In this document: in pieces, positions 7,608 through 34,800 of the stretch
Layout: each line of letters begins with the position of its first letter
Position numbering within the stretch: position 1 is the stretch's first letter
Virus record (IMG/VR): IMGVR_UViG_3300025128_007994
Origin: a virus
Direction: 5' to 3' (one strand)
Length of the DNA stretch: 64,000 nt
Position numbers and translations under genes: made by a program
The notes under the pieces: model-generated
Databases searched by the model: none
Told to the model about the DNA's origin: nothing
What the model saw: the letters and a program-made list of their open reading frames with translations, nothing else

Positions 7608-7682
<75 letters not shown>

Positions 7683-12365: not shown

Positions 12366-12383
12366 CCTGCAACAGGTTATAAT
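12355..12383 (+). promoter_or_regulatory. Perfect-consensus sigma70 promoter upstream of the nuclease and glycan operon
   Basis: TTGACA-N17-TATAAT, then AGGAG SD and ATG 12405. Confidence 0.85.
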
Positions 12384-13189: not shown

Positions 13190-14476
13190 ATGCAAAAGAA
13201 AAAGATTTTGGTTATTGCTGACCACCCACTTTCACCTTCTGGTGTTGGTACTCAAACAAAATACATGATTGAGGCCCTCCTCAAGACACAAAGATACAAG
13301 TTTGTCTGCCTAGGTGGCGCCATGAAGCACGCTGACTACAATGCCGTCAACGTAGAACCATATGGTACAGACTGGACAATCTACCCTGTCGATGGGTATG
13401 GTAATCATGAGATTATTAGATCGGTACTACAAAAAGAAAAGCCAGACTTGCTTTGGTTTATGACCGATCCTCGTTTTTACGAATGGTTGTGGGAGATTGA
13501 AAATGAGGTCCGCGCAAACTTGCCGATGGTATATTACCATGTGTGGGATAACTTTCCCGCGCCACACTTTAATGGAAAATGGTATCGGTCTAATGACCAC
13601 GTTGCATGCATTTCAAAAGTAACACATGAGATTGTCAAAGAGGTGGCACCGCAGGTCAAGTCTTCTTATATGCCACACGCCGTTAATCCAAGTATTTTTA
13701 AACCTTCGGTAACTTCTGAAGAAAAGATTGAAGTTACAAAAATAAGAGAAAATATTCTTGCCGCTTCAAAAGAAAAATTTGATAACCCTAAGAAGAAGAT
13801 ATTCTTTTGGAACAGCCGCAACGCTAGAAGAAAGCAAAGCGGCACACTTATTTGGTGGTTTAAGGAACTCTTAGATGAGGTGGGTCATGATAAGGCCGTA
13901 CTTCTGATGCATACAGACCCTAGAGACCCACACGGTCAGGACTTACCACACATAATTGAGCATCTGGGTGTTGCAGACGGACAAGTTTTGATTTCTTCTA
14001 ACAAGGTAGCCCCCGAGGGCTTAGCCGCAATGTATGGCGCATCTGATTTTACTATTGGTATTAGCGATGCAGAGGGCTTTGGCTTGTCGACTTTGGAATC
14101 ACTTAGTTGTGGTACTCCAATCATAGTCAATATGACAGGCGGCCTACAGGAGCAGGTAACAGACGGTAAAAATTGGTTTGGCTGGGGGATACAGCCGTGC
14201 AGCAAGGCAATTATTGGTTCGCTCCAAGTGCCTTACATCTATGAGGATCGTATATCACAAGAAGACTTTAACAAGGTTATGAAAAAGGCCCTTGCACTAT
14301 CTGGGCCTAAATACAAAAAAATGGCAGAGATGGGCCTACAACATGTTAAGGACAACTATAACTTTGAGGATTACGAAAAGAACTGGACCAGCCTTATTGA
14401 TGAAGTTATCGAAGAAAATGGCTCCTGGGAAACAAGAAAAAATTATGAACGTTGGAATCTAATGGAGGTTTTATAA
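13190..14476 (+). CDS. Glycosyltransferase, GT-B fold (GT4-like)
   Basis: SPSGVGTQ, RNARRKQSG and DAEGFGLSTLESLSCGTPII (EX7E motif). Confidence 0.9.
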   Translation: MQKKKILVIADHPLSPSGVGTQTKYMIEALLKTQRYKFVCLGGAMKHADYNAVNVEPYGTDWTIYPVDGYGNHEIIRSVLQKEKPDLLWFMTDPRFYEWLWEIENEVRANLPMVYYHVWDNFPAPHFNGKWYRSNDHVACISKVTHEIVKEVAPQVKSSYMPHAVNPSIFKPSVTSEEKIEVTKIRENILAASKEKFDNPKKKIFFWNSRNARRKQSGTLIWWFKELLDEVGHDKAVLLMHTDPRDPHGQDLPHIIEHLGVADGQVLISSNKVAPEGLAAMYGASDFTIGISDAEGFGLSTLESLSCGTPIIVNMTGGLQEQVTDGKNWFGWGIQPCSKAIIGSLQVPYIYEDRISQEDFNKVMKKALALSGPKYKKMAEMGLQHVKDNYNFEDYEKNWTSLIDEVIEENGSWETRKNYERWNLMEVL

Positions 14477-15723
14477 TGAAAAAAGTATTATTAAGGGGCC
14501 CCGTATTAACGCGCTCCGGCTATGGCGAACAAGCTCGATTTGCACTTAGAGCATTACGCAGCAGGGAAGACGTGTTTGACATCTATATCAACCCCATACA
14601 ATGGGGAGGAACTAGCTGGTTAAGCGACATTACAGAAGAGCGTACATGGATTGATCAAATTATTGAAAAAACCATTCACTATACCCAACACAGCGGCAAA
14701 TTTGATTACTCAGTACAGGTTACAATACCAAACGAGTTTGAAAAGCTCGCTGATGTCAATGTTGGCTATACCGCTGGAATAGAAACAACAAGAGTCTCTC
14801 ATGAATGGATTCATGAAGCAAATCAGATGGATCGAGTAATCGTTGTTTCAACGCACTCTCGCGATGTATTCGAAGATACTACCTACGACGCTCATTATGA
14901 ACAAACCGGTGAACAGTTTACCCTTAGAACAACCTCCCCAATCGCAGCAGTAAATTATCCTGTAAAAGAATATGAGGATATGAAACCATTAGCGCTTGAT
15001 TTGACAACGGAGAAAAACTTTGTATGTGTCGCGCAGATGGGCCCCCGAAAGAACCTTGACAATACAGTGGCCTGGTTCGTGGAAGAGTTTTTCAATGATG
15101 AAGACGTGGGCCTGATAGTCAAAACAAATTATGCTAAAAATAGTTTAGTTGACAAAGAGGTCTGCCATGGCCGTTTGTTGAATATTCTATCGACATATCC
15201 GGATAGAAAATGCAAGGTGTATCTTTTACACGGCGATATGACGGATAAAGAAATGCATGAGATCTACCTCCATCCTAAGGTGGTAGCTGCAGTTTCGTTT
15301 ACTCATGGTGAAGGCTTTGGCCTCCCTCTTTTTGAAGCAGCATATATGGGTATTCCTGTCGTAGCCACCGGTTGGTCCGGCCAGCTAGATTTTCTTTGCG
15401 ATAAATCTAGAAAAGAATATTTTTATAATGTATCTTTTGATATTCAACCCATTCCTGACAATGTAGTGTGGGATGGTGTTTTGATTAAAGATTCAATGTG
15501 GGCATATCCCCGAAAAGAATCAGCGCAAAAGCAGATGCGCGCATGTCTTAACGACATCAAGGACAATCAAGGCATCGATGCTCAAGAATATGCCAAACAA
15601 TTGAGAGAAAGATTTAGTGAAGAAAGTTTGTATAAAGATTTTATAAATGCAATGGGTATAACTGAAGACGATTTTGATGTTGAAAACTGGCTAGACAATT
15701 TAGGACTTGAAGAAATAGAGTAG
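14476..15723 (+). CDS. Glycosyltransferase, GT-B fold (GT4-like)
   Basis: TRSGYGEQAR, RKNLD and HGEGFGLPLFEAAYMGIPVVATGWSG; start at ATG 14476 (TAATG). Confidence 0.9.
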   Translation: MKKVLLRGPVLTRSGYGEQARFALRALRSREDVFDIYINPIQWGGTSWLSDITEERTWIDQIIEKTIHYTQHSGKFDYSVQVTIPNEFEKLADVNVGYTAGIETTRVSHEWIHEANQMDRVIVVSTHSRDVFEDTTYDAHYEQTGEQFTLRTTSPIAAVNYPVKEYEDMKPLALDLTTEKNFVCVAQMGPRKNLDNTVAWFVEEFFNDEDVGLIVKTNYAKNSLVDKEVCHGRLLNILSTYPDRKCKVYLLHGDMTDKEMHEIYLHPKVVAAVSFTHGEGFGLPLFEAAYMGIPVVATGWSGQLDFLCDKSRKEYFYNVSFDIQPIPDNVVWDGVLIKDSMWAYPRKESAQKQMRACLNDIKDNQGIDAQEYAKQLRERFSEESLYKDFINAMGITEDDFDVENWLDNLGLEEIE

Positions 15724-15731
15724 TGAGTTAG

Positions 15732-16568
15732 ATGAAAATAGTATTCATAGCCGACGCTTTTGCGGAACAAGTGCTTGGCGGCGGCGAACTAAATAACGAA
15801 GAATTACTCAAGATGTTGGCACAAGATGGCCACGACGTATTAAAAATTAATAGTCATAAAGTTACAATAGAGTTTATTGACAGACATATAGAATCGAAGT
15901 TTATCATTGCAAACTTTGCGAATCTAAAACCTGCCCTCAGGGATAAGATCTGTGACACAGTGTATATTATATACGAACACGATCATAAATATTTGAATAC
16001 AAGAAACCCGGGTGAGTATCCGGGATTTAAAGCACCGAAAGAAGAAATAGTCAATATAGAACTGTATAAAAATGCCCGAGCAGTTCTGTGTCAATCACAG
16101 TTTCATTTGGAAATAATAAAAATGAACACTGAGCTTGATAATCTGGTTAATTTAAGCGGTAATCTTTGGTCACTGCGCTCACTTGACTTAATGAAAGCAA
16201 TGGCTGAAAAGCCGAAGTCTGAGTGTTGCTCAATTATGCAATCAAACATTATACATAAAAACACCCGTGAGGCTATTATGTATTGTAAACATAAAAAAAT
16301 GCCGTATAAATTGGTTTCTAGTAAAAATTATGAGTCTTTTTTGGATCAGTTGAGTGAAAACAAAACTTTATTATTCTTACCAAAAACCCCGGAAACACTC
16401 TCACGAGTTGTAGTTGAAGCAAGAATGATGGGAATGAGCGTCATCGTTAATAAAATGATTGGAGCGACTCGGGAGCCTTGGTATGAACTAAAAGGCAAAG
16501 ATCTGATTGAATATATGCGCGTAAAAAGAAAAATGATAAAAGACGTAGTTTTGGAGGAGTTATCATGA
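15732..16568 (+). CDS. Glycosyltransferase-like protein (GT-B)
   Basis: GGGELNN N-terminus and PETLSRVVVEARMMGM (E-x7-E-like). Confidence 0.65.
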   Translation: MKIVFIADAFAEQVLGGGELNNEELLKMLAQDGHDVLKINSHKVTIEFIDRHIESKFIIANFANLKPALRDKICDTVYIIYEHDHKYLNTRNPGEYPGFKAPKEEIVNIELYKNARAVLCQSQFHLEIIKMNTELDNLVNLSGNLWSLRSLDLMKAMAEKPKSECCSIMQSNIIHKNTREAIMYCKHKKMPYKLVSSKNYESFLDQLSENKTLLFLPKTPETLSRVVVEARMMGMSVIVNKMIGATREPWYELKGKDLIEYMRVKRKMIKDVVLEELS

Positions 16569-17482
16569 AAATTTATATATGTGATTATGAAACACACGCC
16601 GGCAAATGGATCTATCAAGGATATCAAAAGGCCTGGAGTTCTCTTGGTTATAAGGTAGTTAAGTGCGGTCCGGGAACAGGGGCGCCGAACCCAGAACCCA
16701 ATGAAAAGTATATGGTGATGGTGACAGATTATGATATATCAGATAGAAATATTAATATTTTAGAAAATAGCCACAAGTCATTCTTATTTGTACAACCAAG
16801 CAGGTTCCCTGAGCCTTGGGCCGGCCACCCAAACTTTACGTCGCAACAAGCCCCACAAACAAGTAAAAAAATAAATCAAATGGATAATGTATATCCTTGG
16901 ACGTTCGCCAATACTTCCGGGAGCGATTTTTATCCTCTATGGGATGGGAAAATAAACACGATACCATTGGCCTTTGATTCAATAAGTTACAATCCCACTG
17001 AAGTGGATAAGTATAAACAGTTTGACATTAGTTTTGTGGGAGGTTGGGCTGACAACGGGTTTAATGAAAAAAGAAAGATAATGATGAAAACCTTTGCTGC
17101 GTTTAAGGACTCTGGCTTGAAGTGCGGGTTCTTCATAAATAAAAACCTTTCTCACCAGCAGGAATGTGATCTGTTAGCGAACAGTAAAATGACGATTAAT
17201 GTACACGACGCATATCAAAGAACACTCGGTACCGATACCAACGAAAGAACTTTTAAGTCGCTTGGCCTTAACGGCCTAATGATTTCAGATACAATTAAAC
17301 AGCTAAACGATATGTTCCCTAGTGTCCGGACAACCCTTGAGCCTTCTGAAATGGTCACTATTGCTAAAGAAGTTCTTTCACTTTCAGAAAGCGAAATTGG
17401 CAATATAAAAGAAGTTAATCGAGAAAACATTTTGAAAAATCATTGCTATGTTAACCGGGTTCGGACATTTCTAGACCTATGA
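16565..17482 (+). CDS. Glycosyltransferase (CgeB/Glyco_trans_1_2-like)
   Basis: DISFVGG, MTINVH, NERTFKSLGLNGLMISD and HCYVNRV. Confidence 0.7.
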   Translation: MKIYICDYETHAGKWIYQGYQKAWSSLGYKVVKCGPGTGAPNPEPNEKYMVMVTDYDISDRNINILENSHKSFLFVQPSRFPEPWAGHPNFTSQQAPQTSKKINQMDNVYPWTFANTSGSDFYPLWDGKINTIPLAFDSISYNPTEVDKYKQFDISFVGGWADNGFNEKRKIMMKTFAAFKDSGLKCGFFINKNLSHQQECDLLANSKMTINVHDAYQRTLGTDTNERTFKSLGLNGLMISDTIKQLNDMFPSVRTTLEPSEMVTIAKEVLSLSESEIGNIKEVNRENILKNHCYVNRVRTFLDL

Positions 17483-18384
17483 AGATAGTCCTTGTAACTA
17501 ACAAGACATACAGAGGCCACCTCGACGGCGGCTGGTGGTATTTTTATTTGCCATTGCTTGAAATGGGTCATGAAGTCTATTTTTTTGACACAGTAGATCC
17601 GGTTGAAAAAGATTTTAAGAAGGTAGTGGAAACGCTGAAGCCAGATTTAATATTTTGTATGTTAACCGGCGATTTTAATATTGCCCCTAGGGAGCCATGG
17701 TCCCAAATAAAACAAGAGACGGACAGCGGCCGCACAAGAACATTCAATTGGTTTTGTGATGATACTTGGAGATACTACGACTTCTCTAAAAAAGTATGCC
17801 AGTATTTCAATATATGTTCAACACCTGAGCCGGATTATATAAAGAAATATGAAAGAGCCGGCTATAGCAATATTGTTTTGGGTACCTGGCATTCCAACAT
17901 AAGTTTGTACCCAAAGTTAAGCTACCAAGATAAAGACATAGAAGTATCTTTTATTGGCGCCTTGAATGGCCTGCGGAAGAATTTCTTTGAACAGCACAAA
18001 GATCTACCAATTGACATTTTTTCTAATATTTCGCAAGAAGAGATGTATTTAACACACGCAAGAAGCAAAATAGCAATTAACTTAAGCATTAATGAAAATG
18101 ATCCGCAAAAGAAGACACAAATGAAACAAAGGATGTTTGAGATCCCCGCGGCCAAGACACTCCTGCTGACTGAACACCACCCAGGGATAGAGCATTTTTT
18201 TGAGATTGACAAAGAAATAATAACATTTAAGAGCAATAGGGAGTTTGAAGATAAGATTAAGTTTTTGAATTCTAAGCCTAAGATAGCAGAAGCAATCGCC
18301 CTCTCCGGCTTTAAAAGATATATCACAGAACATGAATCAAAGATCAGGCTCACCAAAGTGTTACAGCAGGTTATGGCCCTATAA
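17479..18384 (+). CDS. Glycosyltransferase (CgeB/Glyco_trans_1_2-like)
   Basis: NWFCDD, VSFIG, SKIAINLS, KQRMFEIPAAKTLLLTE and FFEIDKEII. Confidence 0.8.
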   Translation: MKIVLVTNKTYRGHLDGGWWYFYLPLLEMGHEVYFFDTVDPVEKDFKKVVETLKPDLIFCMLTGDFNIAPREPWSQIKQETDSGRTRTFNWFCDDTWRYYDFSKKVCQYFNICSTPEPDYIKKYERAGYSNIVLGTWHSNISLYPKLSYQDKDIEVSFIGALNGLRKNFFEQHKDLPIDIFSNISQEEMYLTHARSKIAINLSINENDPQKKTQMKQRMFEIPAAKTLLLTEHHPGIEHFFEIDKEIITFKSNREFEDKIKFLNSKPKIAEAIALSGFKRYITEHESKIRLTKVLQQVMAL

Positions 18385-18394
18385 GCCAGCTTAC

Positions 18395-18422
18395 TTGACA
18401 AAAAGCCAATACGTGATATAAT
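18395..18422 (+). promoter_or_regulatory. Internal sigma70 promoter in the glycan island
   Basis: TTGACA-N16-TATAAT with extended TG (TGATATAAT), in the only sizeable gap of the island. Confidence 0.75.
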
Positions 18423-18446
18423 GATAGCTCACACCGTATCAACAAA

Positions 18447-19178
18447 ATGAAAATAGATATAATAATTCCGTGCTACAATGCAGAAAAGTGGATAGAGAAA
18501 AGCATTAAGAGTGCCTTATCACAAACATATAAGAACATTCAAGTCATTGTAATTGATAATGAAAGCAGCGACAACAGTTACAAAGTAATCCAAGAAGTCC
18601 ATGGCCACCATCCGGAAATAATCATAGGGACTGTACCCAATATTTATCCTTACGGCTGGACTGAGCCGGTGGAAAAAGCTCTAAGTCTTTGTAATGGTGA
18701 TTATTTCACCATCTTGGGCGCGGATGATTACATCGATCCCGAATACATTGAGAAAATTGTCAAGATAATATCGAAAGCCCCAGACAAAATAAAGATTTTA
18801 CAAAGCCCCCTCATAGGAATCGATTCTGACAAAGGCATAACTTTAGAGGAAATAAAACACTCATATAACAGCTTGGGCCAATTTAAACAAATGTTGTTTG
18901 AAAAGTGCCCAGTGACGACGCCCACAGTTGTATACAAGAGAGAACTTCATGATAGTGGTATATTACGATGGGACTCAGAAACTTGCTCTGGCGCAGCAGA
19001 TTATGATTTATATTTCAATATAGCAGACAACGGCATTTTCATATATCCTTATCCCAAGTGGATCGGATATTATTACCGATGGCACTCAGATCAGGCAACT
19101 TGGGGCATGCATAAACAAACAACAAAATATGATTTGCTAATAAAACAAAAATGGATGGAAAAGTGGAAGAATGGATAA
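18447..19178 (+). CDS. Glycosyltransferase family 2
   Basis: IIIPCYNAEKWI, VIVIDNESSD, LGADDYI and AADYDLY. Confidence 0.9.
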   Translation: MKIDIIIPCYNAEKWIEKSIKSALSQTYKNIQVIVIDNESSDNSYKVIQEVHGHHPEIIIGTVPNIYPYGWTEPVEKALSLCNGDYFTILGADDYIDPEYIEKIVKIISKAPDKIKILQSPLIGIDSDKGITLEEIKHSYNSLGQFKQMLFEKCPVTTPTVVYKRELHDSGILRWDSETCSGAADYDLYFNIADNGIFIYPYPKWIGYYYRWHSDQATWGMHKQTTKYDLLIKQKWMEKWKNG

Positions 19179-20955
19179 CAAAATAAGATTGGTCGACTAT
19201 ATCGCAGACAGAGTACACCAATTGGGAGTAAAACACGTTTACACTCTTACCGGTGGCGGCGCAATGTTCCTTAACGACTCTGTAAAGAAGCATGAAAAAC
19301 TGCTCTCTGTTTGCAATCACCACGAACAAGCGAGCGCCATGGCTGCTGTAGCACATGCTAAATATACTAATGGGTTTTCGGTGGTGATACCAACCACAGG
19401 TTGTGGCAGTACAAACTGTATTACCGGTCTATTAGATGCATGGCAGGATAACTTGCCCTGTATATTTATTTCAGGTCAGGTCAACAAAGACCAAACTTGC
19501 TTTAGTTCAACTGCGAATATTCGTCAGTTCGGAGTTCAAGAGGCAAACATTGTAGAAATAGTTAAATCAATCACAAAGTATGCAGTTATGGTTGAGGCTC
19601 CGGAGGACATCGCATATCACCTCGACAAGGCCTTTCACCTGGCTTCTACGGGACGCCGCGGCCCTGTCTGGATAGATGTCCCGCTGGACGTTCAAGGGGC
19701 CTTTATAAACCCCTCTGAGCTTAAAAGGTATATTCCCGACGACAAGACGCTTTCTCCCGATTTAAACAATCTTAGGGAAATGCTAGAAAAAGCCACTCGG
19801 CCCGTAATATTAGCAGGAAATGGCGTGAGGTTAGCCGGCGCCTCAAAAGAAATAAAAACGTTCGCTGAAAAGCACAACATCCCAGTAGTCACTACCTTTC
19901 TGTCAGCCGATTTGTTGCCATCGGAACATGAATTGAACATAGGCAGAGTTGGCATTAAGGGCAATCGAGCAGCAAACTTTGTAGTGCAAAATTCTGATTT
20001 CTTATTGTCGATTGGTTGTAGACTAAGCGTGCCCTCTACCGGCTACAAATATGAATACTTTGCGAGAGAGGCCAATATCGCAGTTGTGGATATAGATCCG
20101 GAAGAGCACAAAAAAGACACTATTAAAATTGACTTGTTTGTGGAAATGGATGCCAAAGACTTTATGCTGAAGTTTGAAACAGAATATCGCTCAACTCAAG
20201 CATGGATAGATACATGTTCGAAATGGAAATCTACATGGCCTGTCTTTTTGCCGGAACACGAAGACGATGAGGATGGTATTAGTATGTACCGATTCATGAA
20301 AACACTGTCTATAACACTTCCTGCAAATTCTAGCGTAGTCGGAGATGCTGGCTCTGCATATTATGTGCCGTGCCAGGCGCTTCAAATCAAAGACGGTCAA
20401 CGCCTGATTACACCTGGAGCCCAAGCAGAAATGGGCTTTACATTGCCGGCCTGTATTGGGCTGTCTTTTGCTATGGAGAATCCTTGCATAGCGGGGATTA
20501 CTGGCGACGGCTCTTTTCAGACAAACATACAGGAATTGCAAACTATTGTACAATATAATCTTCCGGTTAAGATATTTGTGTGGAACAATGATGGCTACCT
20601 TTCAATCAGAACCACACAGAGAAAGTATTTTGAAGATCGATTCGTGGGTACTGACAAAGATAGCGGGGTCTCATTTCCCGATACTCAAAAAATTGCGGCC
20701 GCATATGGGATAAAATACTTTTCTATGTCAAACAATATGGAGCTTGATGCCCAAATGCAGGAGATAATAGATTTTGATGGTCCCGTTATTTGTGAAGTGA
20801 TGTGTAAAAAGTGGGACAAAGTACTGCCCACAATCGGTGCAAAAAAATTAGATAGCGGACAATTAGTATCCCAACCACTAGAAAACATGTTTCCTTTCTT
20901 GACAGAAGAGGAATTACGTGTTAATATGTTAGTACATTCAATAGAGGAGAAATAA
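19171..20955 (+). CDS. Thiamine-diphosphate-dependent enzyme, acetolactate-synthase-like (YerE-type subfamily found in O-antigen loci)
   Basis: GGGAMFLND, HHEQA, ISGQV, RQFGVQE, GPVWIDVPLDVQ and ThDP motif GDGSFQTN...WNNDGY. Confidence 0.85.
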   Translation: MDNKIRLVDYIADRVHQLGVKHVYTLTGGGAMFLNDSVKKHEKLLSVCNHHEQASAMAAVAHAKYTNGFSVVIPTTGCGSTNCITGLLDAWQDNLPCIFISGQVNKDQTCFSSTANIRQFGVQEANIVEIVKSITKYAVMVEAPEDIAYHLDKAFHLASTGRRGPVWIDVPLDVQGAFINPSELKRYIPDDKTLSPDLNNLREMLEKATRPVILAGNGVRLAGASKEIKTFAEKHNIPVVTTFLSADLLPSEHELNIGRVGIKGNRAANFVVQNSDFLLSIGCRLSVPSTGYKYEYFAREANIAVVDIDPEEHKKDTIKIDLFVEMDAKDFMLKFETEYRSTQAWIDTCSKWKSTWPVFLPEHEDDEDGISMYRFMKTLSITLPANSSVVGDAGSAYYVPCQALQIKDGQRLITPGAQAEMGFTLPACIGLSFAMENPCIAGITGDGSFQTNIQELQTIVQYNLPVKIFVWNNDGYLSIRTTQRKYFEDRFVGTDKDSGVSFPDTQKIAAAYGIKYFSMSNNMELDAQMQEIIDFDGPVICEVMCKKWDKVLPTIGAKKLDSGQLVSQPLENMFPFLTEEELRVNMLVHSIEEK

Positions 20956-20956
20956 C

Positions 20957-21889: not shown

Positions 21890-21909
21890 TAGCCCGGAGC
21901 ACCATCTAG

Positions 21910-25021: not shown

Positions 25022-25024
25022 AAT

Positions 25025-26020: not shown

Positions 26021-27156
26021 TGAAAGTAGTAGCAATGATACCTGCCCGTTTTGGCAGCAAAAGAATCCCAAAAAAGAATATACGCTTGTTAAATGGAATC
26101 CCATTGATAAGTTATATTATTAGAGCCGCCAAAGAGGCAAAATGCTTCGATGAAATATACGTTAACTCAGAGTCAGATATTTTGGGAGAGATTGCAGAAA
26201 AAGAAGGCGTAAGTTTTTATAAACGCCCCGCGGAACTTTCAACCGACAGCGCAACAAACGATGAGTTCACACAAGACTTTATGAACAATGTAGAGTGTGA
26301 TGTATTGGTACAACTTTTACCTACATCACCGTTCATAAAAGCACGCGACATACTAAAATTTACCGCCACTATGCTCGGCACGGAGGCCGACACACTTGTA
26401 TCAGTTACCGATCAACAGATAGAGTGCATATATAATCGACAGCCAGTCAACTTTGACCAAAAGAAGATCTCCCCACCGTCGCAGGATGTGACGCCGGTAC
26501 AACCTTATGCATGCGGCATGATGGGTTGGAAAACCTCCAACTATCTTGCGAATATGGATAAGTACAATTGTGGTTATCACGGTGGTGACGGCGATATACA
26601 CTTCTATACTGTTTCGGGCTTTGCGACAGTTGACGTTGACAACGAAGAAGATTTTCAATTAGCGGAAGTAATTGCCCGAGCAATATCAAAAGAAGCATAT
26701 GCACCTCAATTTTATGGCGAAACGCATTCGGAAGTTGATGTTCCTTCAATCTTGCTTAAGGACGGAGTTAAAAATAATAATTTACATGACACCAACAAAG
26801 AAATAGTCAATATCAACGAGATACGTTCTTCGTTCAAGTCAACAAAGTCGTGGAGTCACCGAGTTGTAAATACGGAAAACAACAGCGCGACCTTGATCCA
26901 CCAACAGCCGGGCCAAGGAAATCGAAGGCACTATCACCCAGATTGGAACGAGTGGTGGTATATCGTCGATGGAGAGTGGGAGTGGGAAATCGACGGAGTT
27001 AAGAAAATTGTCAAAAAAGATGATATTGTTTTTATACCCAAGGGTATAATACACAGAATAGAGGCCACCGGTGACAAGCCTGCAATTCGCCTAGCTATCA
27101 GCCGGGAAGATGTGGCACATGTATATCCAGATGGAGAGCATACAAATGAAAGATAA
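26020..27156 (+). CDS. CMP-ulosonic acid synthetase (NeuA/KdsB-like cytidylyltransferase) fused to a C-terminal cupin
   Basis: IPARFGSKRIPKKN, VNSES, YKRP, PTSPF and VDVDNEEDF; cupin HYHPDWNEWWYIVDG...FIPKGIIHRI. Confidence 0.88.
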   Translation: MKVVAMIPARFGSKRIPKKNIRLLNGIPLISYIIRAAKEAKCFDEIYVNSESDILGEIAEKEGVSFYKRPAELSTDSATNDEFTQDFMNNVECDVLVQLLPTSPFIKARDILKFTATMLGTEADTLVSVTDQQIECIYNRQPVNFDQKKISPPSQDVTPVQPYACGMMGWKTSNYLANMDKYNCGYHGGDGDIHFYTVSGFATVDVDNEEDFQLAEVIARAISKEAYAPQFYGETHSEVDVPSILLKDGVKNNNLHDTNKEIVNINEIRSSFKSTKSWSHRVVNTENNSATLIHQQPGQGNRRHYHPDWNEWWYIVDGEWEWEIDGVKKIVKKDDIVFIPKGIIHRIEATGDKPAIRLAISREDVAHVYPDGEHTNER

Positions 27157-28045
27157 TGTACTTTTGAATGAAACAATGTTTGTCATAGGTTCGGGCCCGA
27201 GCTTGAACGCTATCGATATCAAAAAATTAGAGGGTCTTCATACTATTTCCTTGAATCGGCAGTATATTGCCTATGAAGACTGGGGCTTTTGGCCAAAATA
27301 CCACGCTTGTATCGATATACGATTGATAAATACTATTTACGAATCAGATCTTCTTCCAATGATGTTAAGCCCGGAATGCGAAATTGAGAGATTTTTCATC
27401 TATGGCTGCAGCAATCTTGAAGTCCCGGAGGACGTCGCTGCACACTATAACATTCAAGCAGGGGCGCTTCCGGAAAAGCTCATATGGATACCGGCGGTTG
27501 GTAGTACATTCCGGACCCCCGCTCAGCGCACCAAGACTATTCCGAAGCTAGAAACATGCTATGTAGACCCAGAGCTAGCGCGGGAAAGACTGAGCACACA
27601 TCTTCGGGATCCAAATGATCCGTATTCATGCTTAGAGCACTTTGGTATCTCCGGAGCCTGGTCAGTAACATTAGCTCGCAGCTTGGGGTATAAAAGAGTT
27701 GTCGTCTTGGGCATCGATGCCAACTACGTTCCCCGTGTCGAATCAATTAGTGCTGGAAGAGACCTCAACCACTTTCACAAAAATTATTTTGATGTAGATA
27801 CTTTTGTATATCAAGTTAACTTCGGGCCGGCCACCGGCTACTTAGAACCATGGAAAATAATGGCCACCGGCACTGGCCTCAATGACCAGCCCGTTTCTTG
27901 CGGATCGCCAGATGCGGCCCATGTTTGCGCCGATGAGACCATTGAGGTAATTTCATCTTCGCCAGGCTCACCTATTAATGAGTGGTTTGAATATATTGAT
28001 TTTAATAAATTGTTGGAAAGCTATGAGGCAGAAGATGAATATTGA
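27146..28045 (+). CDS. DUF115/MAF_flag10-like protein (possible ulosonate transferase)
   Basis: FVIGSGPSLN, ISLNR, SGAWSVTLARSLGYKRVVVLGID and NHFHKNYF; start at ATG 27146. Confidence 0.6.
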   Translation: MKDNVLLNETMFVIGSGPSLNAIDIKKLEGLHTISLNRQYIAYEDWGFWPKYHACIDIRLINTIYESDLLPMMLSPECEIERFFIYGCSNLEVPEDVAAHYNIQAGALPEKLIWIPAVGSTFRTPAQRTKTIPKLETCYVDPELARERLSTHLRDPNDPYSCLEHFGISGAWSVTLARSLGYKRVVVLGIDANYVPRVESISAGRDLNHFHKNYFDVDTFVYQVNFGPATGYLEPWKIMATGTGLNDQPVSCGSPDAAHVCADETIEVISSSPGSPINEWFEYIDFNKLLESYEAEDEY

Positions 28046-28757
28046 TTTTGCAAACCAAAATGTGCTGGTAACTGGTGGTACCCGCGGAATAGGTAATCAA
28101 ATTGCAAACGATTTCGCCAATTTAGGTGCACACGTTTTGATTACTGGCACGAAAAAACCAAAACAAAAGATACACCAAAACATACAATTTGTTTCTGCGA
28201 ATTTTCTGGATAACACTTCAACCGAAAACTTTATTAAAGAGATCTCTGAACAAACATTTGATGTCTGCGTTAACAATGCTGGCATTAACAAGATTGATCC
28301 ACTCTGCGAGGTCAAAGAGCAAGACTGGAATGACGTAATGAAAGTCAACCTCACAGCACCATTTTTGATACAGCAGGCTGTATGCAAGAACATGCTCAAC
28401 CAGAGCTACGGAAAGATAGTCAATATCTCCTCTATATGGGGCACAGTCAGCATTCCGCACCGCGCCAGTTACTCTGCCAGCAAGTTCGGTCTACGAGGCC
28501 TCACGGCAGCCTCAGCGGCCGAACTGGCTCAACATAACATTTTGATCAACACTGTCTCGCCGGGGTTCACATTAACTGACCTGACCAAACAAATCTTGGG
28601 TGAACAGGGTATTGAAGACTTGACAAAACAGATTCCAATGCGACGAATGGCTGAGGTGGATGAAATATCGAGAGTTGTACTGTTCATGTGCAGCAAACTC
28701 AATACATATATTTCTGGCCAGAATATCATTGTAGACGGCGGATTTGTAAATGTGTGA
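28035..28757 (+). CDS. Classical SDR oxidoreductase (FabG-like)
   Basis: VLVTGGTRGIG, VNNAG, YSASK and NIIVDGG; start at ATG 28035. Confidence 0.92.
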   Translation: MNIDFANQNVLVTGGTRGIGNQIANDFANLGAHVLITGTKKPKQKIHQNIQFVSANFLDNTSTENFIKEISEQTFDVCVNNAGINKIDPLCEVKEQDWNDVMKVNLTAPFLIQQAVCKNMLNQSYGKIVNISSIWGTVSIPHRASYSASKFGLRGLTAASAAELAQHNILINTVSPGFTLTDLTKQILGEQGIEDLTKQIPMRRMAEVDEISRVVLFMCSKLNTYISGQNIIVDGGFVNV

Positions 28758-29811
28758 CATCGAAACTATTGAAATTAAATCTTATAGAAGAAAATATAAA
28801 GTTATGTTTCAACAACTGTCGGAGAGCCTAGTTGAGAATGTTAAGGAAAAGTCTTTTTTGATAATCGATTCAAACGTAGACAAATACTTTCCCCTGTTTC
28901 GTTCAAGATTTGATGAACACAACATATTTGTTGTCGAAGCAAATGAACAAAATAAGACCTTGCAAACCTGCACGGCCCTTGTCGAAAGACTTGTATCCCA
29001 GGGTTTTAAAAGAAATCATAAACTTATTGCTGTGGGCGGCGGTGTTGTCCAAGACATAACAGCGTTTACAGCATCAGTTCTATATCGTGGTGTTGAATGG
29101 AGATTCTTTCCCACGACTCTGTTGGCTCAAGCAGATAGCTGCATAGGCAGCAAGACATCCATCAACTTGGGCGAAACAAAGAACTTATTAGGCACGTTTT
29201 ATCCACCAGCGGAGATCTATTGTTGCCCTGAGTTTTTAGAAACGTTGCATGAGGACGACATCAAATCTGGCATCGGCGAGATATTCCATTATTATTTAAC
29301 AGCAGATAGCAACATGTCGAAAGAACTAGCAGAATCGTATGAATCGGTCATTAAACATCCGGCCCTCCGCTGCGCCAAGCACATTAGAGAAAGCCTCTCC
29401 ATTAAAAAGAGAATGATTGAAAAGGATGAGTTTGATGAAGGCGAGAGAAAGATATTCAATTACGGTCACACTTTTGGTCACGCTATAGAAGCGATTAGTA
29501 GATACGAAGTAAGTCATGGCAATGCTGTTACATTAGGAATGGATATTGCTAACTATATTTCGTTGAAAAAAGGACTTATAGAGCAGGCCACATACGAACA
29601 CCTGTTCGGGATGATTAAAAAAAATATACCAGACTATCGTTTAACCGAAGATAGGCTTCAAGACTATTTTACTTTTTTGTCAAAAGACAAGAAGAACATT
29701 GACAATTCTTTAGTTTGTATATTACCATATGGGATCGGAGACATGAGAACAACTGCAATAGATGATATTGACAGTGTAAAAGATATAATAAGAGAGTATT
29801 TTAACAAATGA
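28750..29811 (+). CDS. AroB-related sugar-phosphate cyclase (DHQ synthase superfamily)
   Basis: GGGVVQDITAF, PTTLLAQADSCIGSKTSIN, KNLLGTF, NYGHTFGHAIE, HGNAV and DKK. The QDIT/SCIGSKT variant differs from canonical GDxxGF/SSVGGKT. Confidence 0.85.
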   Translation: MCDIETIEIKSYRRKYKVMFQQLSESLVENVKEKSFLIIDSNVDKYFPLFRSRFDEHNIFVVEANEQNKTLQTCTALVERLVSQGFKRNHKLIAVGGGVVQDITAFTASVLYRGVEWRFFPTTLLAQADSCIGSKTSINLGETKNLLGTFYPPAEIYCCPEFLETLHEDDIKSGIGEIFHYYLTADSNMSKELAESYESVIKHPALRCAKHIRESLSIKKRMIEKDEFDEGERKIFNYGHTFGHAIEAISRYEVSHGNAVTLGMDIANYISLKKGLIEQATYEHLFGMIKKNIPDYRLTEDRLQDYFTFLSKDKKNIDNSLVCILPYGIGDMRTTAIDDIDSVKDIIREYFNK

Positions 29812-30974
29812 GAAGTATAGCCCGTAGTAGTAAATTTGATATTAAGGTTGATTTTTCAAAAAGTCACGAATCTTATCTATTTGATAAAAACACCGATAGG
29901 GAGCTTTTAGATTTTTTTGGCATGTATGCGTCATTGCCTCTTGGTTACAATCACCCGATTTTCAAGTCAGATGAATTTATAGAAGAATACTTACGTGTAG
30001 CCAGTTTTAAAATAAATAACTGTGAGTTCACCTCCGACGAAACGCTGGAGTTTGACAGGGACTTTAAGCGATACGCTGGGGTCGACATTTTTGAACATTT
30101 CCACTATTCTTGCACCGGTGCGCTAGCCGTTGAAGCGGCAATTAAAACATGCATAGATTATAAGCGCCACACAAGCCCATTGATCTTATCGTTCGATAAC
30201 AGTTTCCATGGAATCAATAGTTACGGAGGCTTTGTGACCTCTCGATTTCCTGGCGCCGATACGCGCTTGGATGGATATCCATCTGTCTTTTCTAAAAAGA
30301 TTCCCTGCAATCTAGAGAATGTTGAAGAAGAAATGCGCACTGGTAAAATAACTTGTGTATTAGTCGAACCAATTCAATGTAGCGCTGGAGATATCTATCA
30401 TGATAACCAATTCTTTAATGGTTTGCGTACTCTTTGCAATGTATATGACGTCCCACTAGTGTTTGATGAGATACAGATTGGTTTTGGTGGCACAGGCAAA
30501 GTGTGGTACTTCCAGCATCTTGATATAGTGCCTGACATCGTTATCTTTGGAAAGAAGACACAGTTGTCGGGAATCATGGCACAAGAAAAATACGGAGAAA
30601 TATTTAATCCAAAGAACAGTATCAGATTAGAGGTGACATGGGACGGCGATGTGGCCGATATGGTAAGGTGTAAATACATCATGAAGGCATATGAAAAAAA
30701 CAATATACTGGACAATGTCAACAAGCAGAGTAAGGCCATAATGGGCGGGTTGTCCGACATAGAGGAGATACTAAATTTGAGAAATTGTGGATTAATTATA
30801 GGATTTGATTTGCCAAACTCTCAAAAGCGTGATATAGTAGTAGACAAGTTGTATAAAAACGGCTTAATTTGCAACAAAACCGGTCAAAAATCTGTTAGAT
30901 TTAGACCAAATTTGAATGTAAATGAAAAAGAAATAGACCATGCGTTACAAATTATAAAGGAAACAATAAAGTAA
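29808..30974 (+). CDS. Class III PLP aminotransferase (lysine 6-aminotransferase-like)
   Basis: TGALAVEAAIK, SFHG, VEPIQ, VFDEIQIGFG, FGKKTQ (PLP Lys) and TWDG. Confidence 0.88.
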   Translation: MRSIARSSKFDIKVDFSKSHESYLFDKNTDRELLDFFGMYASLPLGYNHPIFKSDEFIEEYLRVASFKINNCEFTSDETLEFDRDFKRYAGVDIFEHFHYSCTGALAVEAAIKTCIDYKRHTSPLILSFDNSFHGINSYGGFVTSRFPGADTRLDGYPSVFSKKIPCNLENVEEEMRTGKITCVLVEPIQCSAGDIYHDNQFFNGLRTLCNVYDVPLVFDEIQIGFGGTGKVWYFQHLDIVPDIVIFGKKTQLSGIMAQEKYGEIFNPKNSIRLEVTWDGDVADMVRCKYIMKAYEKNNILDNVNKQSKAIMGGLSDIEEILNLRNCGLIIGFDLPNSQKRDIVVDKLYKNGLICNKTGQKSVRFRPNLNVNEKEIDHALQIIKETIK

Positions 30975-31583
30975 ATGTTAATTAATTTTGAGAATATTGA
31001 AGAAAAATGCCACACGGCAGCCTCATCGGCTGAGTATGCGATACTCGCCGAGAAAGTGAGCAAAGTAAAAAAGATCTTTTTGATTGGAAATGGTGGCTTG
31101 CACTACGTAGCGAGCCATATGGCGACCGATTTATCGCGACTGATACCGGATAAGGCTGTATATTCATTTGATAGTGTCGGGTTTATCACATCCAACGCCA
31201 ACGATCATGGGTATGACAAGATCTTTATTAGATGGCTAGAAACTATTGCCAATGGTGTTGAAAGACCGGAGGAGTGCTTAATTATAGGACTCTCTTGTTC
31301 GGGCAATTCGGGCAATGTTATCGATGCCCTACATTGGGCTGACGATACTGGCTATGAGACATTTATGGTTAGCGGTCAAACGTCTGATGTTTTGCGCAAA
31401 GGCGTGGATGAATTATCCCTTGATTGTGAATTTTTCCACACTGTCGAAGTAATGTGTCTAATGATATTCTATGATCTTATTCACCGTACAGGCAATCACT
31501 GTCCGTCTATTCGACAAGAAAAAGACAGACTGACAGACTCCCCTCTTCGCAAATCGAAGGAGGAAAATTGGGAACCCCTATAG
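30975..31583 (+). CDS. SIS-domain sugar-phosphate isomerase (divergent GmhA-like)
   Basis: IFLIGNGG, ASHMATD, ANDHGYDKIF and LSCSGNSGNVIDA. Confidence 0.8.
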   Translation: MLINFENIEEKCHTAASSAEYAILAEKVSKVKKIFLIGNGGLHYVASHMATDLSRLIPDKAVYSFDSVGFITSNANDHGYDKIFIRWLETIANGVERPEECLIIGLSCSGNSGNVIDALHWADDTGYETFMVSGQTSDVLRKGVDELSLDCEFFHTVEVMCLMIFYDLIHRTGNHCPSIRQEKDRLTDSPLRKSKEENWEPL

Positions 31584-32683
31584 ACAAGATTTGCTGTGTT
31601 ATATACCATACAGGAGAGATGTATAAGAAAATAGCATCCAATGCAGTCAACAGCTTTAAGAAATATCACCCAGATATACAACTATTTGAGGTGACAGATG
31701 ACAACATTAGTGATTACCATTTTTCTAAAAACATAAACTTTTCTATTGATGGCATCGAAACCGAAATAGATATCGGCGCAAGAAAATTTTTCATCGCCGC
31801 TGAACTAATGAAGCTTCGCGGTTACAAGAAAGTTATCTGTTTAGGTGCTGACACCATAACGACCGCAAGACTCACGGAGTTTATAGAAACACCCGCGGGA
31901 ATAGCTGTTACCAGTGACTATCCTGACGCAAATGCTTTTCCTTGGGAACACAACGGAAACATGGTTTTGGGGCAGCCGGCTTGTATTAATAAAGATCCAA
32001 ATGCTGCAGGGACCCCAATAGCAGATTTTCATAAAATATACGAAGAGTCTTACAAGAACAATACCTTAGTCGCAGATGTCGCCTATGTTAATGCAGACGT
32101 TGTCTGTTTCAACTCACAAGAAATATTAGAGGAAGTATGTAAAATATGGTATAAATATCGGGCCATAACATTGATCCCAAAATATAGATTCCGACTGGCA
32201 CATGAAGTTGGTGCGTACGACCTTGATATGCCCCAATCAGAGATAAATCTTATTAGAAGTAAGCTGTCAGAAATCAAATCACCGAATGCTTGGGATCCGA
32301 CATCCCAGACTGCGATGGTGACTCGGTACCATTATCTTTCGGAACAAGCCGCGTTAAACATCTTCGTTGCACCACACACGCAGCAGCCCGGGGTCATTCA
32401 ATTTGTTGACCTGCCTGTTCTTAAAAAAGGAGTTTGTTATAATGTTCGTAGCAAGGGCACCGTAAGTCACTCTAACAAGAATTTAAAAGATTTTTATGTT
32501 AAAGATGGTCATCTATTTAATCACACCCACAATCAAATAAAGGTTTGGCATTACTGTGCGTCTCTATCTTCGAGTCCCAAGGGATTTGAGGGCACCCTAA
32601 AAGAGATAAATGATTCTTTTAGCGATGAGGTAAAACAATATTTTGCTAATGAATGCAACTGTGAGAATTACTTTAATGTATAA
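31568..32683 (+). CDS. Glycosyltransferase-like protein (GT8-like, GT-A)
   Basis: VICLGADTI (DxD-like), YVNADVV, SEQAALN and KVWHY; TTG start after GGAGG. Confidence 0.55.
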   Translation: MGTPIDKICCVIYHTGEMYKKIASNAVNSFKKYHPDIQLFEVTDDNISDYHFSKNINFSIDGIETEIDIGARKFFIAAELMKLRGYKKVICLGADTITTARLTEFIETPAGIAVTSDYPDANAFPWEHNGNMVLGQPACINKDPNAAGTPIADFHKIYEESYKNNTLVADVAYVNADVVCFNSQEILEEVCKIWYKYRAITLIPKYRFRLAHEVGAYDLDMPQSEINLIRSKLSEIKSPNAWDPTSQTAMVTRYHYLSEQAALNIFVAPHTQQPGVIQFVDLPVLKKGVCYNVRSKGTVSHSNKNLKDFYVKDGHLFNHTHNQIKVWHYCASLSSSPKGFEGTLKEINDSFSDEVKQYFANECNCENYFNV

Positions 32684-33584
32684 CAACGTGCTAGTAACTG
32701 GCGGATCGGGATTCTTGGGAAAAAGGTTATCTATAGTCAGACCACAATGGACATACCTGTCATCGAAAGACTGCGATCTCACCAGTACAACCCAAGTTAA
32801 AGAACTATATGGGGATCTTAAACCAGACGCAGTTCTTCATCTCGCTGCCCGCGTCGGTGGAATAAAAGATAATATTAAAAACCAGGCTGAGTTTTTCTAT
32901 AATAATACGATGATGAACACAAACATAATCAATGAAGCTTATGAAGCAGGCATTGAGCGTGTTCTCTCATCCTTGAGCACTTGCGCCTTCCCAGAAGATA
33001 TAGCAGCCTTCCCATTTACTGAGAGAGACTTTTTTAATGGACCGCCGACCGAGACAAACTTTTCATATGGAATGACAAAAAGAATGCTCCAGGTTGGTAG
33101 TCGGGCGTATAGAAATCAGTGTGGAATGAACTATTCTACATTCTGTCCGTCTAATCTTTATGGGCCAGACGATCATTTTGGAAAGGAATCGTCACACTTT
33201 GTAGCAGCCTTGATTCACAAGGTATACACAGCCACAGAGGGCTCTGAAATAGATTTGTGGGGCACCGGCCTACCGATGAGGCAACAACTGTATGTGGACG
33301 ATTTATGTGCCATTCTGCCTGTACTCCTAGAGGTACACAATACAGAAGTCCCACTGATTGTAGCACCGAAAGAAAACTTATCCATATTAGAGATGGCTAG
33401 AACTTTGGTTGAACAAGCCGGCAAAAATGTGAGATTATCTTTTAATGGAAACATGGACGGCCAATTTCGAAAAGATGGGAACAACGAAGAACTGATGAAA
33501 CTAATCGGCTCTTTCAATTTTACAACTTTTAAGGAAGGTGTGACCAAAACTTATAAATGGTATTCGGAGAATCAAAATGAGTAA
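32676..33584 (+). CDS. fcl: GDP-L-fucose synthase-like (GDP-4-keto-6-deoxymannose epimerase/reductase)
   Basis: [44 protein letters not shown] and RQQLYVDD. Confidence 0.88.
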
Positions 33585-34569
33585 CAAACAAAAAACAGCT
33601 TTAGTAACAGGTGTAACGGGTCAAGATGGTTCTTATCTCGTAGATCTGTTATTGGAAAAAGGATATAACGTGGTGGGAGTAAAGAGAAGAACTTCCCTCA
33701 TTAGCACCGACCGCATCGATCACATTTTTAATGATGTAGATAAGATACAGAACTTCACGCTAGCATACGGAAACATGATCGATGCCGGCAATATGTATCG
33801 ATTACTAAATCAGTACAAGCCAGATGAGATTTATAATCTTGCAGCCCAGTCACACGTCAGGGTTTCCTTTGACACACCGGAAGAAACATCAGATATCGTT
33901 GCCATGGGTACCTTGCGTTTGCTTGAGGCCGTGCGCTCTGTCTGTCCGGAATCTAGATTTTATCAAGCCTCATCGTCTGAGATGTTTGGAGACAATCCCG
34001 AAAATCCACAAAGCGAGACAACACGATTGATGCCGGCAAGCCCCTACGCTTGCGCAAAAGTGTTCGCACACAACTTGTGTCGCAATTATCGCGAGAGTTA
34101 TGGCATGCACATTTCCAGCGGCATTTTGTTCAATCATGAATCTCCCAGAAGAGGAGAGACCTTTGTTACACGTAAGATAACAAAGGCTGCAGCAAACATT
34201 AGGCTTGGCCGCCAAGACAAGCTTTACCTAGGAAATTTAGATGCTAAGCGCGATTGGGGGTTTGCTGGAGACTACGTGGACGCCATGTGGCGTATGACAC
34301 AACAAGATACCCCTGATGACTATGTTGTGGCAACAGGCGAGACACACACTGTAAAAGAGTTTTTACATGAGGTGTTTGATTACGCCGGCCTCAATGTGGA
34401 TGAACACGTGGAAATAGACACAAGACTATACCGACCACATGAAGTGCCATTGTTATTGGGTGATCCATCTAAGGCGAAAGAAAAGCTGGACTGGGAACCA
34501 ACAATCAGATTTAAAGGCCTCGCAAGAATGATGTACGACGCCGATCTCAAGAGCCTCGCTAAATCATAA
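33577..34569 (+). CDS. gmd: GDP-mannose 4,6-dehydratase
   Basis: [51 protein letters not shown] and RDWG. Confidence 0.97.
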
Positions 34570-34570
34570 T

Positions 34571-34798: not shown

Positions 34799-34800
34799 AA

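Follow-up and report, generated by a model that had tools for sequence, protein, structure and literature searches.

What does a phage build with an operon of nucleotide-sugar enzymes and glycosyltransferases, and on what does it place the product? The question is raised by the IMG/VR virus record IMGVR_UViG_3300025128_007994, of which a stretch of 64,000 nucleotides was analysed (hereafter the window). Exactly 21 open reading frames (ORFs), all on the + strand and here termed g1-g21, occupy positions 13190-34569. An earlier note, made from the sequence alone, had described them as a glycan biosynthesis island of consecutive, overlapping or almost abutting genes, lying between a nuclease gene and a block of sigma-factor and baseplate genes. 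The ORF listing and the family matches of the flanking proteins bear out both parts of this description: neighbouring island genes overlap or lie 0-20 bp apart, the single exception being a gap of 62 bp (18385-18446). The cluster is genuine, phage-borne and not a chimera, and its proposed role in making a complex glycan through several phage-encoded sugar routes is supported by codon use, independent contigs and family matches. It is a modular glycan locus in a fixed genomic slot, of which whole modules are swapped among relatives, even between near-strains.

The island belongs to the phage genome

The bacterial look of the gene content, together with the binning of some relatives into bacterial metagenome-assembled genomes (MAGs; L182 in GCA_900491965.1), might suggest an artefact, namely a bacterial O-antigen locus fused to phage sequence in assembly or flanking a prophage. 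The earlier note had named this as the reading that would undo its own, and the test leaves it with a negligible probability. Relative synonymous codon usage inside and outside the island correlates at r=0.91, GC content at third codon positions is equal (0.414 vs 0.417), overall GC content stays flat over the island and its flanks, and phage genes lie on both sides across the 64 kb. The same junctions recur in many independent contigs and studies. Near-identical or related contigs with the island include L124, L185, L169-171 and L182; the first of these, from another metagenome, runs from the nuclease gene through g9 at 76-100% protein identity. Sixteen public runs carry at least half of the sampled 31-letter words of a 10-kb island piece, and of these, 13 (about 10 studies) bear no flag that marks them as possible sources of the window. 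In two independent marine DNA runs, contigs cover every bin of 16500-36499 with 0-3 differing letters, at depths of 3-11 and 7-19 and with no break inside the island, and one contig spans its right border. L182 itself (contig UEXN01000511.1), a sister-phage contig filed in a bacterial/MAG assembly, shares the island layout and encodes a protein of >2400 aa; its placement there is probably a binning artefact or the trace of an infected cell.

Searches with the baseplate wedge and the nuclease recovered hundreds of IMG/VR contigs, among them four judged complete at 194-203 kb, one of which has direct terminal repeats. Relatives of this uncultured marine clade of myoviruses, with genomes of about 190-200 kb, measure 187,393-203,368 bp. 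The label 'jumbo' given to the phage earlier is thus borderline, since the complete relatives straddle 200 kb. By the baseplate wedge, the nearest cultured phages, Microcystis phage Mel-JY01 and Flavobacterium phage immuto, are about 30% identical, and a megablast search of the island against 50,697 phage records returned no match, which places it in a lineage without a close cultured relative.

A fixed slot with a variable cassette

We define the slot as the nuclease gene, followed by variable genes and then by the small ORF, the late sigma factor and the baseplate genes. Its borders in the window are the following:

12405..13175, + strand: PD-(D/E)XK exonuclease, conserved left anchor of the slot, found in 79 related loci
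35260..35592, + strand: small ORF at the right slot border, with a 48-55% identical copy at the same place in relatives G002-G005
35546..36259, + strand: late sigma factor (gp55-like; phrog_234), conserved right anchor

The small ORF has a hydrophobic segment at its N-terminus, and the late sigma factor is 67-78% identical to those of the four complete relatives. Left of the island a PhoH gene precedes the exonuclease gene; to its right, the late sigma factor is followed by the baseplate hub, gp25 and the wedge.

The slot opens in the same manner in every relative examined, with a pair of GT4 glycosyltransferases, usually followed by a small enzyme of the GT-B fold. Homologues of g1 (74 loci) and g2 (71 loci) come directly after the nuclease gene, with g3 next in 43, frequently fused to a GT2 domain. 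The other island genes are found in few relatives or none. Thus, the four complete relatives each show the nuclease, g1, g2, in some cases g3, a cassette of 13-21 kb, the small ORF and the late sigma factor, and their cassettes share almost nothing with the present island. Pfam matches in the cassettes of G003-G005 comprise sugar epimerases and dehydratases, several glycosyltransferase families, cytidylyltransferases, DegT, radical SAM enzymes, sulfo- and methyltransferases and RmlC. The synteny comparison with related phages, which had been put forward as a check, therefore gives a divided picture of conserved flanks around cassettes that are not syntenic.

The same turnover is visible over shorter distances. 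Contigs L095, L097 and L098 keep g1-g6 and g9-g11, in a different order, and lack g7 and g8. The sister phages L169-171 and L182 have a split transketolase in place of g7 and g8 and lack g14 and g19, and L169-171 carry an additional B12-radical SAM gene. L185 is without g14-g16, and another contig has a single gene in place of g12-g19. L124 holds about 1.1 kb between its g6 and g7 (16804-17898) that is missing from the window; its g4 is just 76% identical while the neighbouring genes stand at 94-100%, and the insertion and the divergent g4 look like local recombination inside the island.

The conserved opening extends to cultured phages: immuto, with an island of 13 genes, and Mel-JY01 both have the exonuclease followed by the GT4-GT4 pair and a smaller glycan island. 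Copies of g1 in immuto, Mel-JY01 and RM378 are 27-32% identical, and in the first two the g2 homologue adjoins that of g1. Our literature searches gave no hit for Mel-JY01 or for the glycosyltransferase of RM378.

Glycosyltransferase candidates

The earlier count of up to nine transferases is a fair one, with eight candidates reasonably supported and one (g12) weak:

13190..14476, + strand: g1, GT4, conserved first gene of the slot (PF00534, 45.7 bits)
14452..15723, + strand: g2, divergent GT4-like, conserved partner of g1 (PF00534, 32 bits)
15732..16568, + strand: g3, compact GT-B glycosyltransferase (no Pfam match; AlphaFold2 model, predicted local distance difference test (pLDDT) 96.3)
16565..17482, + strand: g4, Glyco_trans_1_2, CgeB-like (PF13524, 38.6 bits)
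17479..18384, + strand: g5, Glyco_trans_1_2 (PF13524, 77.9 bits)
18447..19178, + strand: g6, GT2 (PF00535, 91.9 bits)
25025..26020, + strand: g12, weak candidate for a GT29-like (sialyltransferase-like) enzyme (PF00777, E 2.9e-4, below cut-off)
27110..28045, + strand: g14, MAF/DUF115- and Cst-II-like (GT42-like) CMP-sugar transferase (from homologues and family profile)
31568..32683, + strand: g19, glycosyltransferase of the GT-A fold and GT8 clan (no Pfam match; AlphaFold2 pLDDT 84.5)

Matches above the Pfam gathering cut-off were obtained for g1 and g2 (GT4), g4 and g5 (Glyco_trans_1_2) and g6 (GT2). A single-sequence search of PDB sequences with g2 gave no match, and the idea that g1 and g2 are recent paralogues was rejected, the two being barely alignable. 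For the two proteins recognised by structure prediction, Foldseek retrieved Gtf3/GtfC, BshA and GT4 enzymes as best neighbours of g3 (E 3e-8), and XXYLT1, WbbM, LgtC, UGGT and glycogenin as matches of g19 (E 5e-6, with template modelling scores of only 0.3-0.5). For g19, 131 homologues were found, and D95, N175, D177 and H328 are invariant.

The two candidates for CMP-sugar transfer have an N-terminal motif of the IGxxPSL type in common. The weak GT29 match of g12 is seen again in the sister phages; its PDB search gave nothing significant, with ST6Gal1 and ST3Gal1 at E 0.6-0.9, ranked after the unrelated desmoglein-2. The Pfam match of g14 itself (MptE/MAF) is weak and its single-sequence PDB search gave no significant match, whereas PF01973 is found in 15 of 24 of its homologues and the family profile, through which alone Cst-II was reached, matches this Campylobacter sialyltransferase at E 1e-6. 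The gene is absent from the sister phages L169 and L185.

Three nucleotide-sugar routes

At least three nucleotide-sugar routes had been proposed, and three are supported at the level of protein families. The first resembles the synthesis of a branched dideoxysugar:

19171..20955, + strand: g7, YerE-like, three-domain carboligase dependent on thiamine diphosphate (ThDP) (nearest to JanthE, 8RPH)
20957..21889, + strand: g8, PanB, 3-methyl-2-oxobutanoate hydroxymethyltransferase (above equivalog cut-offs)
21910..22761, + strand: g9, short RmlD-like reductase of the short-chain dehydrogenase/reductase (SDR) kind, with a putative YerF-like role (PF01370, PF04321)
22734..24071, + strand: g10, E1-type NDP-4-keto-6-deoxyhexose 3-dehydrase, RfbH/DdhC (NF011936, 473.6 bits vs cut-off 423)
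24071..25021, + strand: g11, NDP-hexose 4,6-dehydratase, nearest to the dTDP-glucose type (TIGR01181, 295.5 bits, below cut-off 365)

The nearest solved structure to g7 is JanthE (8RPH; E 2e-128, 433 bits), the best acetolactate synthase (ALS) reaching 236 bits, and g7 scores below every ALS equivalog cut-off. An E1 homologue lies within 8 kb in 26 of 80 bacterial loci with a g7 homologue, rising to 19 of the 27 in which that homologue is at least 38% identical. The E1 enzyme g10 aligns over its full length with the Yersinia E1 3BCX (E 1e-102) and retains the active-site PAHH histidine and the CYC cysteines, the fourth cysteine following a 5-residue insertion. The dehydratase g11 gives 73.6 bits against the CDP-glucose-type profile, and in relatives without g7 and g8, g9 still accompanies g10 and g11. 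We thus predict that g11, g10, g7 and g9, acting in this order as in yersiniose synthesis, would yield a C4-branched 3,6-dideoxyhexose.

In the yersiniose A pathway of Yersinia pseudotuberculosis (DdhA-D, YerE, YerF), as here, a 4,6-dehydratase, an E1 enzyme, a YerE-like enzyme and a reductase occur side by side, and the linkage of YerE-like and E1 enzymes recurs in bacteria. The phage locus differs in that its dehydratase is nearer the dTDP type and that neither an E3 reductase (DdhD) nor a hexose-1-phosphate nucleotidyltransferase (DdhA) family was found among the 21 genes. It differs further in having a bona fide PanB beside the ThDP enzyme, or, in the sister phages, a split transketolase.

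The PanB assignment itself is firm, with g8 scoring above two equivalog cut-offs (TIGR00222, 288.7 vs 207.6; NF001452, 320.6 vs 272). PanB adjoins the thiamine pyrophosphate (TPP) enzyme in two otherwise different islands of the phage clade, and was found in none of the 80 bacterial loci with a g7 homologue. A joint role of ALS and PanB in making pantoate was considered and rejected: IlvC, IlvD and PanE are absent, and g7 is YerE-like, not an ALS. JanthE, a YerE-like carboligase by which keto-acid donors are coupled to ketones, tolerates long and hydroxylated keto acids (PMC12188165), because of which we propose that PanB may supply ketopantoate to g7 as the keto-acid donor of the branch. The transketolase swap in the sister phages would fit a 'branch-donor plus branch-transfer' unit. 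As a separate observation, PanB in marine contigs falls into >120 clusters at 85-100% identity, far more conserved than its neighbours, and in L185 it is 97% identical as against 82% for g7 and 78% for g9; this suggests strong constraint on, or recent spread of, this single gene.

The second route combines a cytidylyltransferase with an AroB-like enzyme:

26002..27156, + strand: g13, NeuA/PseF-like cytidylyltransferase fused to a cupin (PF02348, 83.6 bits; PF07883, 63.8 bits)
27978..28757, + strand: g15, FabG-like SDR oxidoreductase (PF13561, 175.9 bits)
28750..29811, + strand: g16, AroB-related sugar-phosphate phospholyase (TIGR04425, 423.1 bits vs cut-off 400)
29808..30974, + strand: g17, class III aminotransferase, lysine epsilon-aminotransferase-like (PF00202, 202.7 bits)
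30975..31583, + strand: g18, SIS-domain (GmhA-like) sugar-phosphate isomerase (TIGR00441, 59.9 bits, below cut-off 209)

Against PDB sequences, g13 matches NeuA enzymes (E 8e-22) and g17 is nearest to lysine epsilon-aminotransferase (2CIN, E 2.5e-55), while the nearest structures to g16 are true dehydroquinate (DHQ) synthases at 172 bits, against 119 for DOIS and 99 for EEVS. No match of the PF03102 type (NeuB/PseI/LegI condensing synthases) and no KdsA-type condensing enzyme was found among the 21 island proteins. We propose that g13 and g15-g18 would produce, without NeuB, a CMP-activated amino sugar acid, for transfer by g12 and g14. In the Kdo8N pathway an oxidoreductase and an aminotransferase (KdnA/KdnB) yield a terminal amine, and the same could apply here.

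Like the CMP-nonulosonic and octulosonic acid systems (NeuA/PseF, Cst-II, Maf), the phage locus has a NeuA-like enzyme with sialyltransferase-like and MAF-like transferases; unlike them, it has the TIGR04425 enzyme, a SIS isomerase and an SDR in place of NeuB/PseI/LegI/KdsA, an aminotransferase of class III, not of the DegT type, and a cupin fused to its cytidylyltransferase. A cytidylyltransferase, a SIS protein, an SDR and an AroB-like gene co-occur in bacterial polysaccharide clusters, the SIS_2 gene going with the AroB-like genes in bacterial loci and the g15-type SDR being paired with the AroB-like gene in phages and bacteria alike. Our literature search found no characterised sugar pathway of the AroB-like/cytidylyltransferase kind. 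In three bacterial loci (L193, L201 and L256), the SDR and AroB-like genes stand directly upstream of a YerE-like gene, with an E1 dehydrase nearby in L193 and L201, so that the first two routes may be connected and perhaps form one pathway in bacteria. The SDR and AroB-like products of these loci are 38-44% identical to g15 and g16, and L193 (4493-9800; Clostridium thailandense) also has an HMGL-like gene.

The third route is of the Gmd/Fcl type:

32643..33584, + strand: g20, Fcl-like GDP-4-keto-6-deoxymannose epimerase/reductase (NF047922, 179.9 bits, below cut-off 500)
33577..34569, + strand: g21, GDP-mannose 4,6-dehydratase, Gmd (PF16363, 442.3 bits)

Acting in the order g21 and g20, these would make GDP-fucose or a related 6-deoxyhexose.

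Promoters and neighbouring genes

A pattern scan of the window found five perfect TTGACA-N16/17-TATAAT sites, all on the + strand, where 0.06 are expected by chance:

8094-8122, + strand: perfect sigma70-type promoter
12355..12383, + strand: perfect sigma70-type promoter (TTGACA-N17-TATAAT), ahead of the nuclease gene and the island
18395..18422, + strand: perfect sigma70-type promoter, in the only sizeable intergenic gap
22609..22637, + strand: perfect sigma70-type promoter inside g9, ahead of g10
24831..24859, + strand: perfect sigma70-type promoter inside g11, ahead of g12

Four of the five belong to the locus, one just before the nuclease gene and three within the island, including that in the 62-bp gap. 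All five are confined to the first 25 kb, and the half of the window with the late structural genes has none; three of the sites end alike, in GGTTATAAT. The T4-type late promoter TATAAATA was also considered and set aside as uninformative, with 5 sites against 4.35 expected, and a terminator scan gave no more than chance level. Short near-identical contigs from one metatranscriptome fall in six of the genes, a weak hint of expression; stretches without cover in this RNA run are not evidence of silence.

Upstream of the island, ARAGORN found a tmRNA (3492-3827; tag ANNNNHFESVRLAA), two tRNA-Asn(GTT) and one tRNA-Gly(GCC) (6904-6980, 7529-7604 and 7608-7682), and the PhoH-like ATPase (9120-10454) carries a fused N-terminal PIN domain. 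Beyond the island, two giant ORFs (38733-45377, 2214 aa, and 49195-60537, 3780 aa) flank the baseplate wedge genes. The longer protein, rich in S, G, T and N, carries a ConA-like lectin domain (Laminin_G_3) close to its N-terminus. Both are candidate fibre or host-recognition proteins, and possibly acceptors or binders of the glycan.

The acceptor of the glycan

The enzymes described above suggest the following course. Starting from host NDP-glucose and GDP-mannose and from a sugar phosphate or ulosonate, soluble enzymes would make three activated sugars, which the nine transferases would assemble in the cytoplasm. The conserved GT4 pair may build a constant core on a phage-borne acceptor, most likely a virion protein, and the variable enzymes would add a strain-specific outer part, a viral counterpart of the O-antigen. 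That the acceptor is a virion protein or another phage-borne cytoplasmic molecule has, in our estimate, about an even chance of being right. The sharing of the opening pair by phages of Bacteroidota and Cyanobacteria and the lack of an export apparatus argue for it. The earlier note had seen no flippase, polymerase or ABC exporter; indeed, no polytopic membrane protein occurs in the island or in those of the four relatives, with at most one hydrophobic segment per protein. By family, Wzx (PF01943), Wzy_C (PF04932), ABC2_membrane (PF01061) and the WbaP-type priming transferase Bac_transf (PF02397) are absent from the four complete relatives, with positive controls, the WecA type (PF00953) not having been searched by family. 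This argues against autonomous export. The sole polytopic ORF seen in relative G003 (171362-174013, - strand; 14362-17013 in L179) lies far from the island; its product of 883 aa, for which Pfam gives no match, has about nine hydrophobic segments between residues 512 and 732. We do not take it for an exporter; a tape-measure or injection protein is one possibility. Transferases known to glycosylate proteins in the cytoplasm are found both among enzymes of the MAF/Cst-II-like type and among those with the Gtf3-like fold, and g14 and g3, respectively, are compatible with such a role.

Several points weigh against a virion acceptor and its proposed sugars. The sigma70-type promoters probably imply that the locus is expressed early or in the middle of infection, ahead of the late virion proteins. 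A Ser/Thr-rich repeat acceptor of the serine-rich repeat protein (SRRP) kind was sought among the window ORFs and none was found, the 3780-aa protein being merely S/G/T/N-rich. The whole-genome family searches were made on the four complete relatives, which stand in for the genome of this phage. Without an E3 reductase or a nucleotidyltransferase in the island, the first route depends on host functions; its proposed PanB donor is suggested by adjacency and by the tolerance of JanthE for long keto acids. The evidence naming the acceptor is indirect, so a virion protein is favoured over the host surface by inference. Moreover, soluble GT4 and GT2 enzymes also serve undecaprenyl-linked intermediates, and the lack of transmembrane segments is thereby still compatible with a host carrier, flippase and ligase.

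The last point leads to the chief alternative, remodelling of the host surface, in which the glycan would be built on host undecaprenyl-phosphate or on lipopolysaccharide (LPS) or capsule intermediates and displayed by a host flippase or ABC exporter and ligase. It could serve superinfection exclusion, reduce the loss of progeny on cell debris or allow escape from grazers. Comparable islands of cyanomyoviruses and pelagimyophages are usually read in this way (PMC1079782, PMC7029224, PMC12801897), and the early-type promoters fit it. O-antigen loci have the same transferase types (GT4, GT2 and GT8) and deoxysugar routes, and bacterial YerE-E1 pairs sit in polysaccharide clusters. However, neither a priming phosphoglycosyltransferase nor a flippase, polymerase, ligase or ABC permease was found in the island or the four complete relatives, and a GT4 pair conserved across host phyla with different envelopes is better explained by a phage-borne acceptor, as are the transferase types akin to those of cytoplasmic protein glycosylation. 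We therefore regard host-surface remodelling as possible, though somewhat unlikely.

Two further readings fare much worse. DNA had been suggested earlier as an acceptor. On this reading, sugars on modified bases would block restriction as in T-even phages; early-type promoters would suit this, T4 DNA glucosyltransferases have the GT-B fold (T4 AGT stands at rank 25 in the fold list of g3), and phage DNA glycans are diverse, to go by the citation of Pyle et al. 2024 in PMC12619734. Nonetheless, the four complete relatives lack ThyA (PF00303) and ThyX (PF02511), with positive controls, and hence any known route to hydroxymethyl-pyrimidines, and nine transferases with three elaborate routes go far beyond any known DNA glycan. 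We know of no CMP-sugar or sialyltransferase-like enzymes in DNA modification, and DNA glycosylation is most unlikely. Scarcely better is a glycosylated small molecule, in which the AroB-like enzyme, the aminotransferases and the branched deoxysugar would go into an aminocyclitol or antibiotic-like glycoside. DHQ synthase-like cyclases with aminotransferases, and YerE/E1-type deoxysugar routes, do occur in antibiotic pathways. There is also the precedent of 'antibiotic synthesis genes' in a cyanomyovirus (PMC12801897). Against this, the locus has no polyketide, nonribosomal peptide synthetase or aglycone machinery, its nine transferases point to an oligo- or polysaccharide, and the AroB-like family stands in bacterial polysaccharide loci beside glycosyltransferases and cytidylyltransferases, all of which makes such a product very improbable.

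Relation to known systems

Large hypervariable glycan islands in marine myoviruses, and the glycosylation of mycobacteriophage virions, are already known. The rarity implied by the earlier note, by which most phages carry only a few glycosyltransferases, is overstated, comparable loci being those of P-SSM2 (24 'LPS' genes; PMC1079782), S-SCSM2R (22 genes including 13 glycosyltransferases; PMC12801897) and the pelagimyophages with their hypervariable, glycosyltransferase-rich islands (PMC7029224). The 'LPS/O-chain' islands of marine T4-like myoviruses (P-SSM2, S-SCSM1/S-SCSM2R and the pelagimyophage host-recognition cluster) likewise hold about 20 sugar-nucleotide and glycosyltransferase genes in lytic phages, lie near structural or host-recognition genes and are not syntenic among relatives (PMC1079782, PMC12801897, PMC7029224). 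The present locus differs in its lineage, its baseplate wedge being about 30% identical to that of any cultured phage, and in being a single compact operon whose fixed slot opens with the conserved GT4-GT4 pair. It also carries the YerE-like/E1/PanB and AroB-like/CMP modules, of which the literature searched contains no mention.

Bacterial O-antigen and capsule clusters share with the phage locus the single operon, the conserved flanks, the exchanged content and the presence or absence of modules at strain level; in contrast to them, the island and the complete relatives have no initiating phosphoglycosyltransferase, Wzx, Wzy, Wzm/Wzt or ligase. In the glycosylation operons of mycobacteriophages, virus transferases act on virion proteins in the cytoplasm, with neither a lipid carrier nor an exporter (Freeman et al. 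2023, as cited in PMC12619734 and PMC12801897); only few glycosyltransferase genes are involved there. The 'Moraphage' jumbo lineage (PMC12619734), which also has core glycosyltransferases, was considered and set aside, as nothing links it to this clade. What sets the locus apart is the lineage, the fixed slot with its opening pair, the turnover of modules at strain level and two enzyme combinations, that of PanB with a YerE-like enzyme and that of an AroB-like enzyme with a CMP-transferase. Outside the phages, the giant viruses (chloroviruses and mimiviruses) have their own transferases and sugar-nucleotide pathways, which work on virion proteins in the cytoplasm of eukaryotic hosts with no lipid carrier or exporter.

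Taken together, these features allow a bolder reading, which we offer tentatively and consider rather doubtful as a whole. An abundant marine clade would coat its virions with a strain-variable 'viral O-antigen', the conserved GT4-GT4(-GT-B) trio priming a phage protein in the cytoplasm and the swappable cassettes adding outer sugars, among them two new ones, a ketopantoate-branched 3,6-dideoxyhexose and a CMP-activated amino acid sugar made without NeuB or KdsA, possibly a carbocyclic or 7-carbon mimic of sialic acid.

The 'LPS genes' of marine myoviruses have been noted since 2005. The conserved slot shared with cultured Flavobacterium and Microcystis phages makes the question of the acceptor approachable in those phages. 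The locus also offers two candidates for new sugar chemistry, a YerE-like carboligase supplied by PanB and an AroB-related route to a CMP-sugar, the latter having counterparts in polysaccharide loci of bacteria. Should the virion carry the glycan, the surface sugars of phages would be among the traits that diversify in the ocean, and could affect adsorption, recognition by defence systems or grazers, and the stickiness of the particles.

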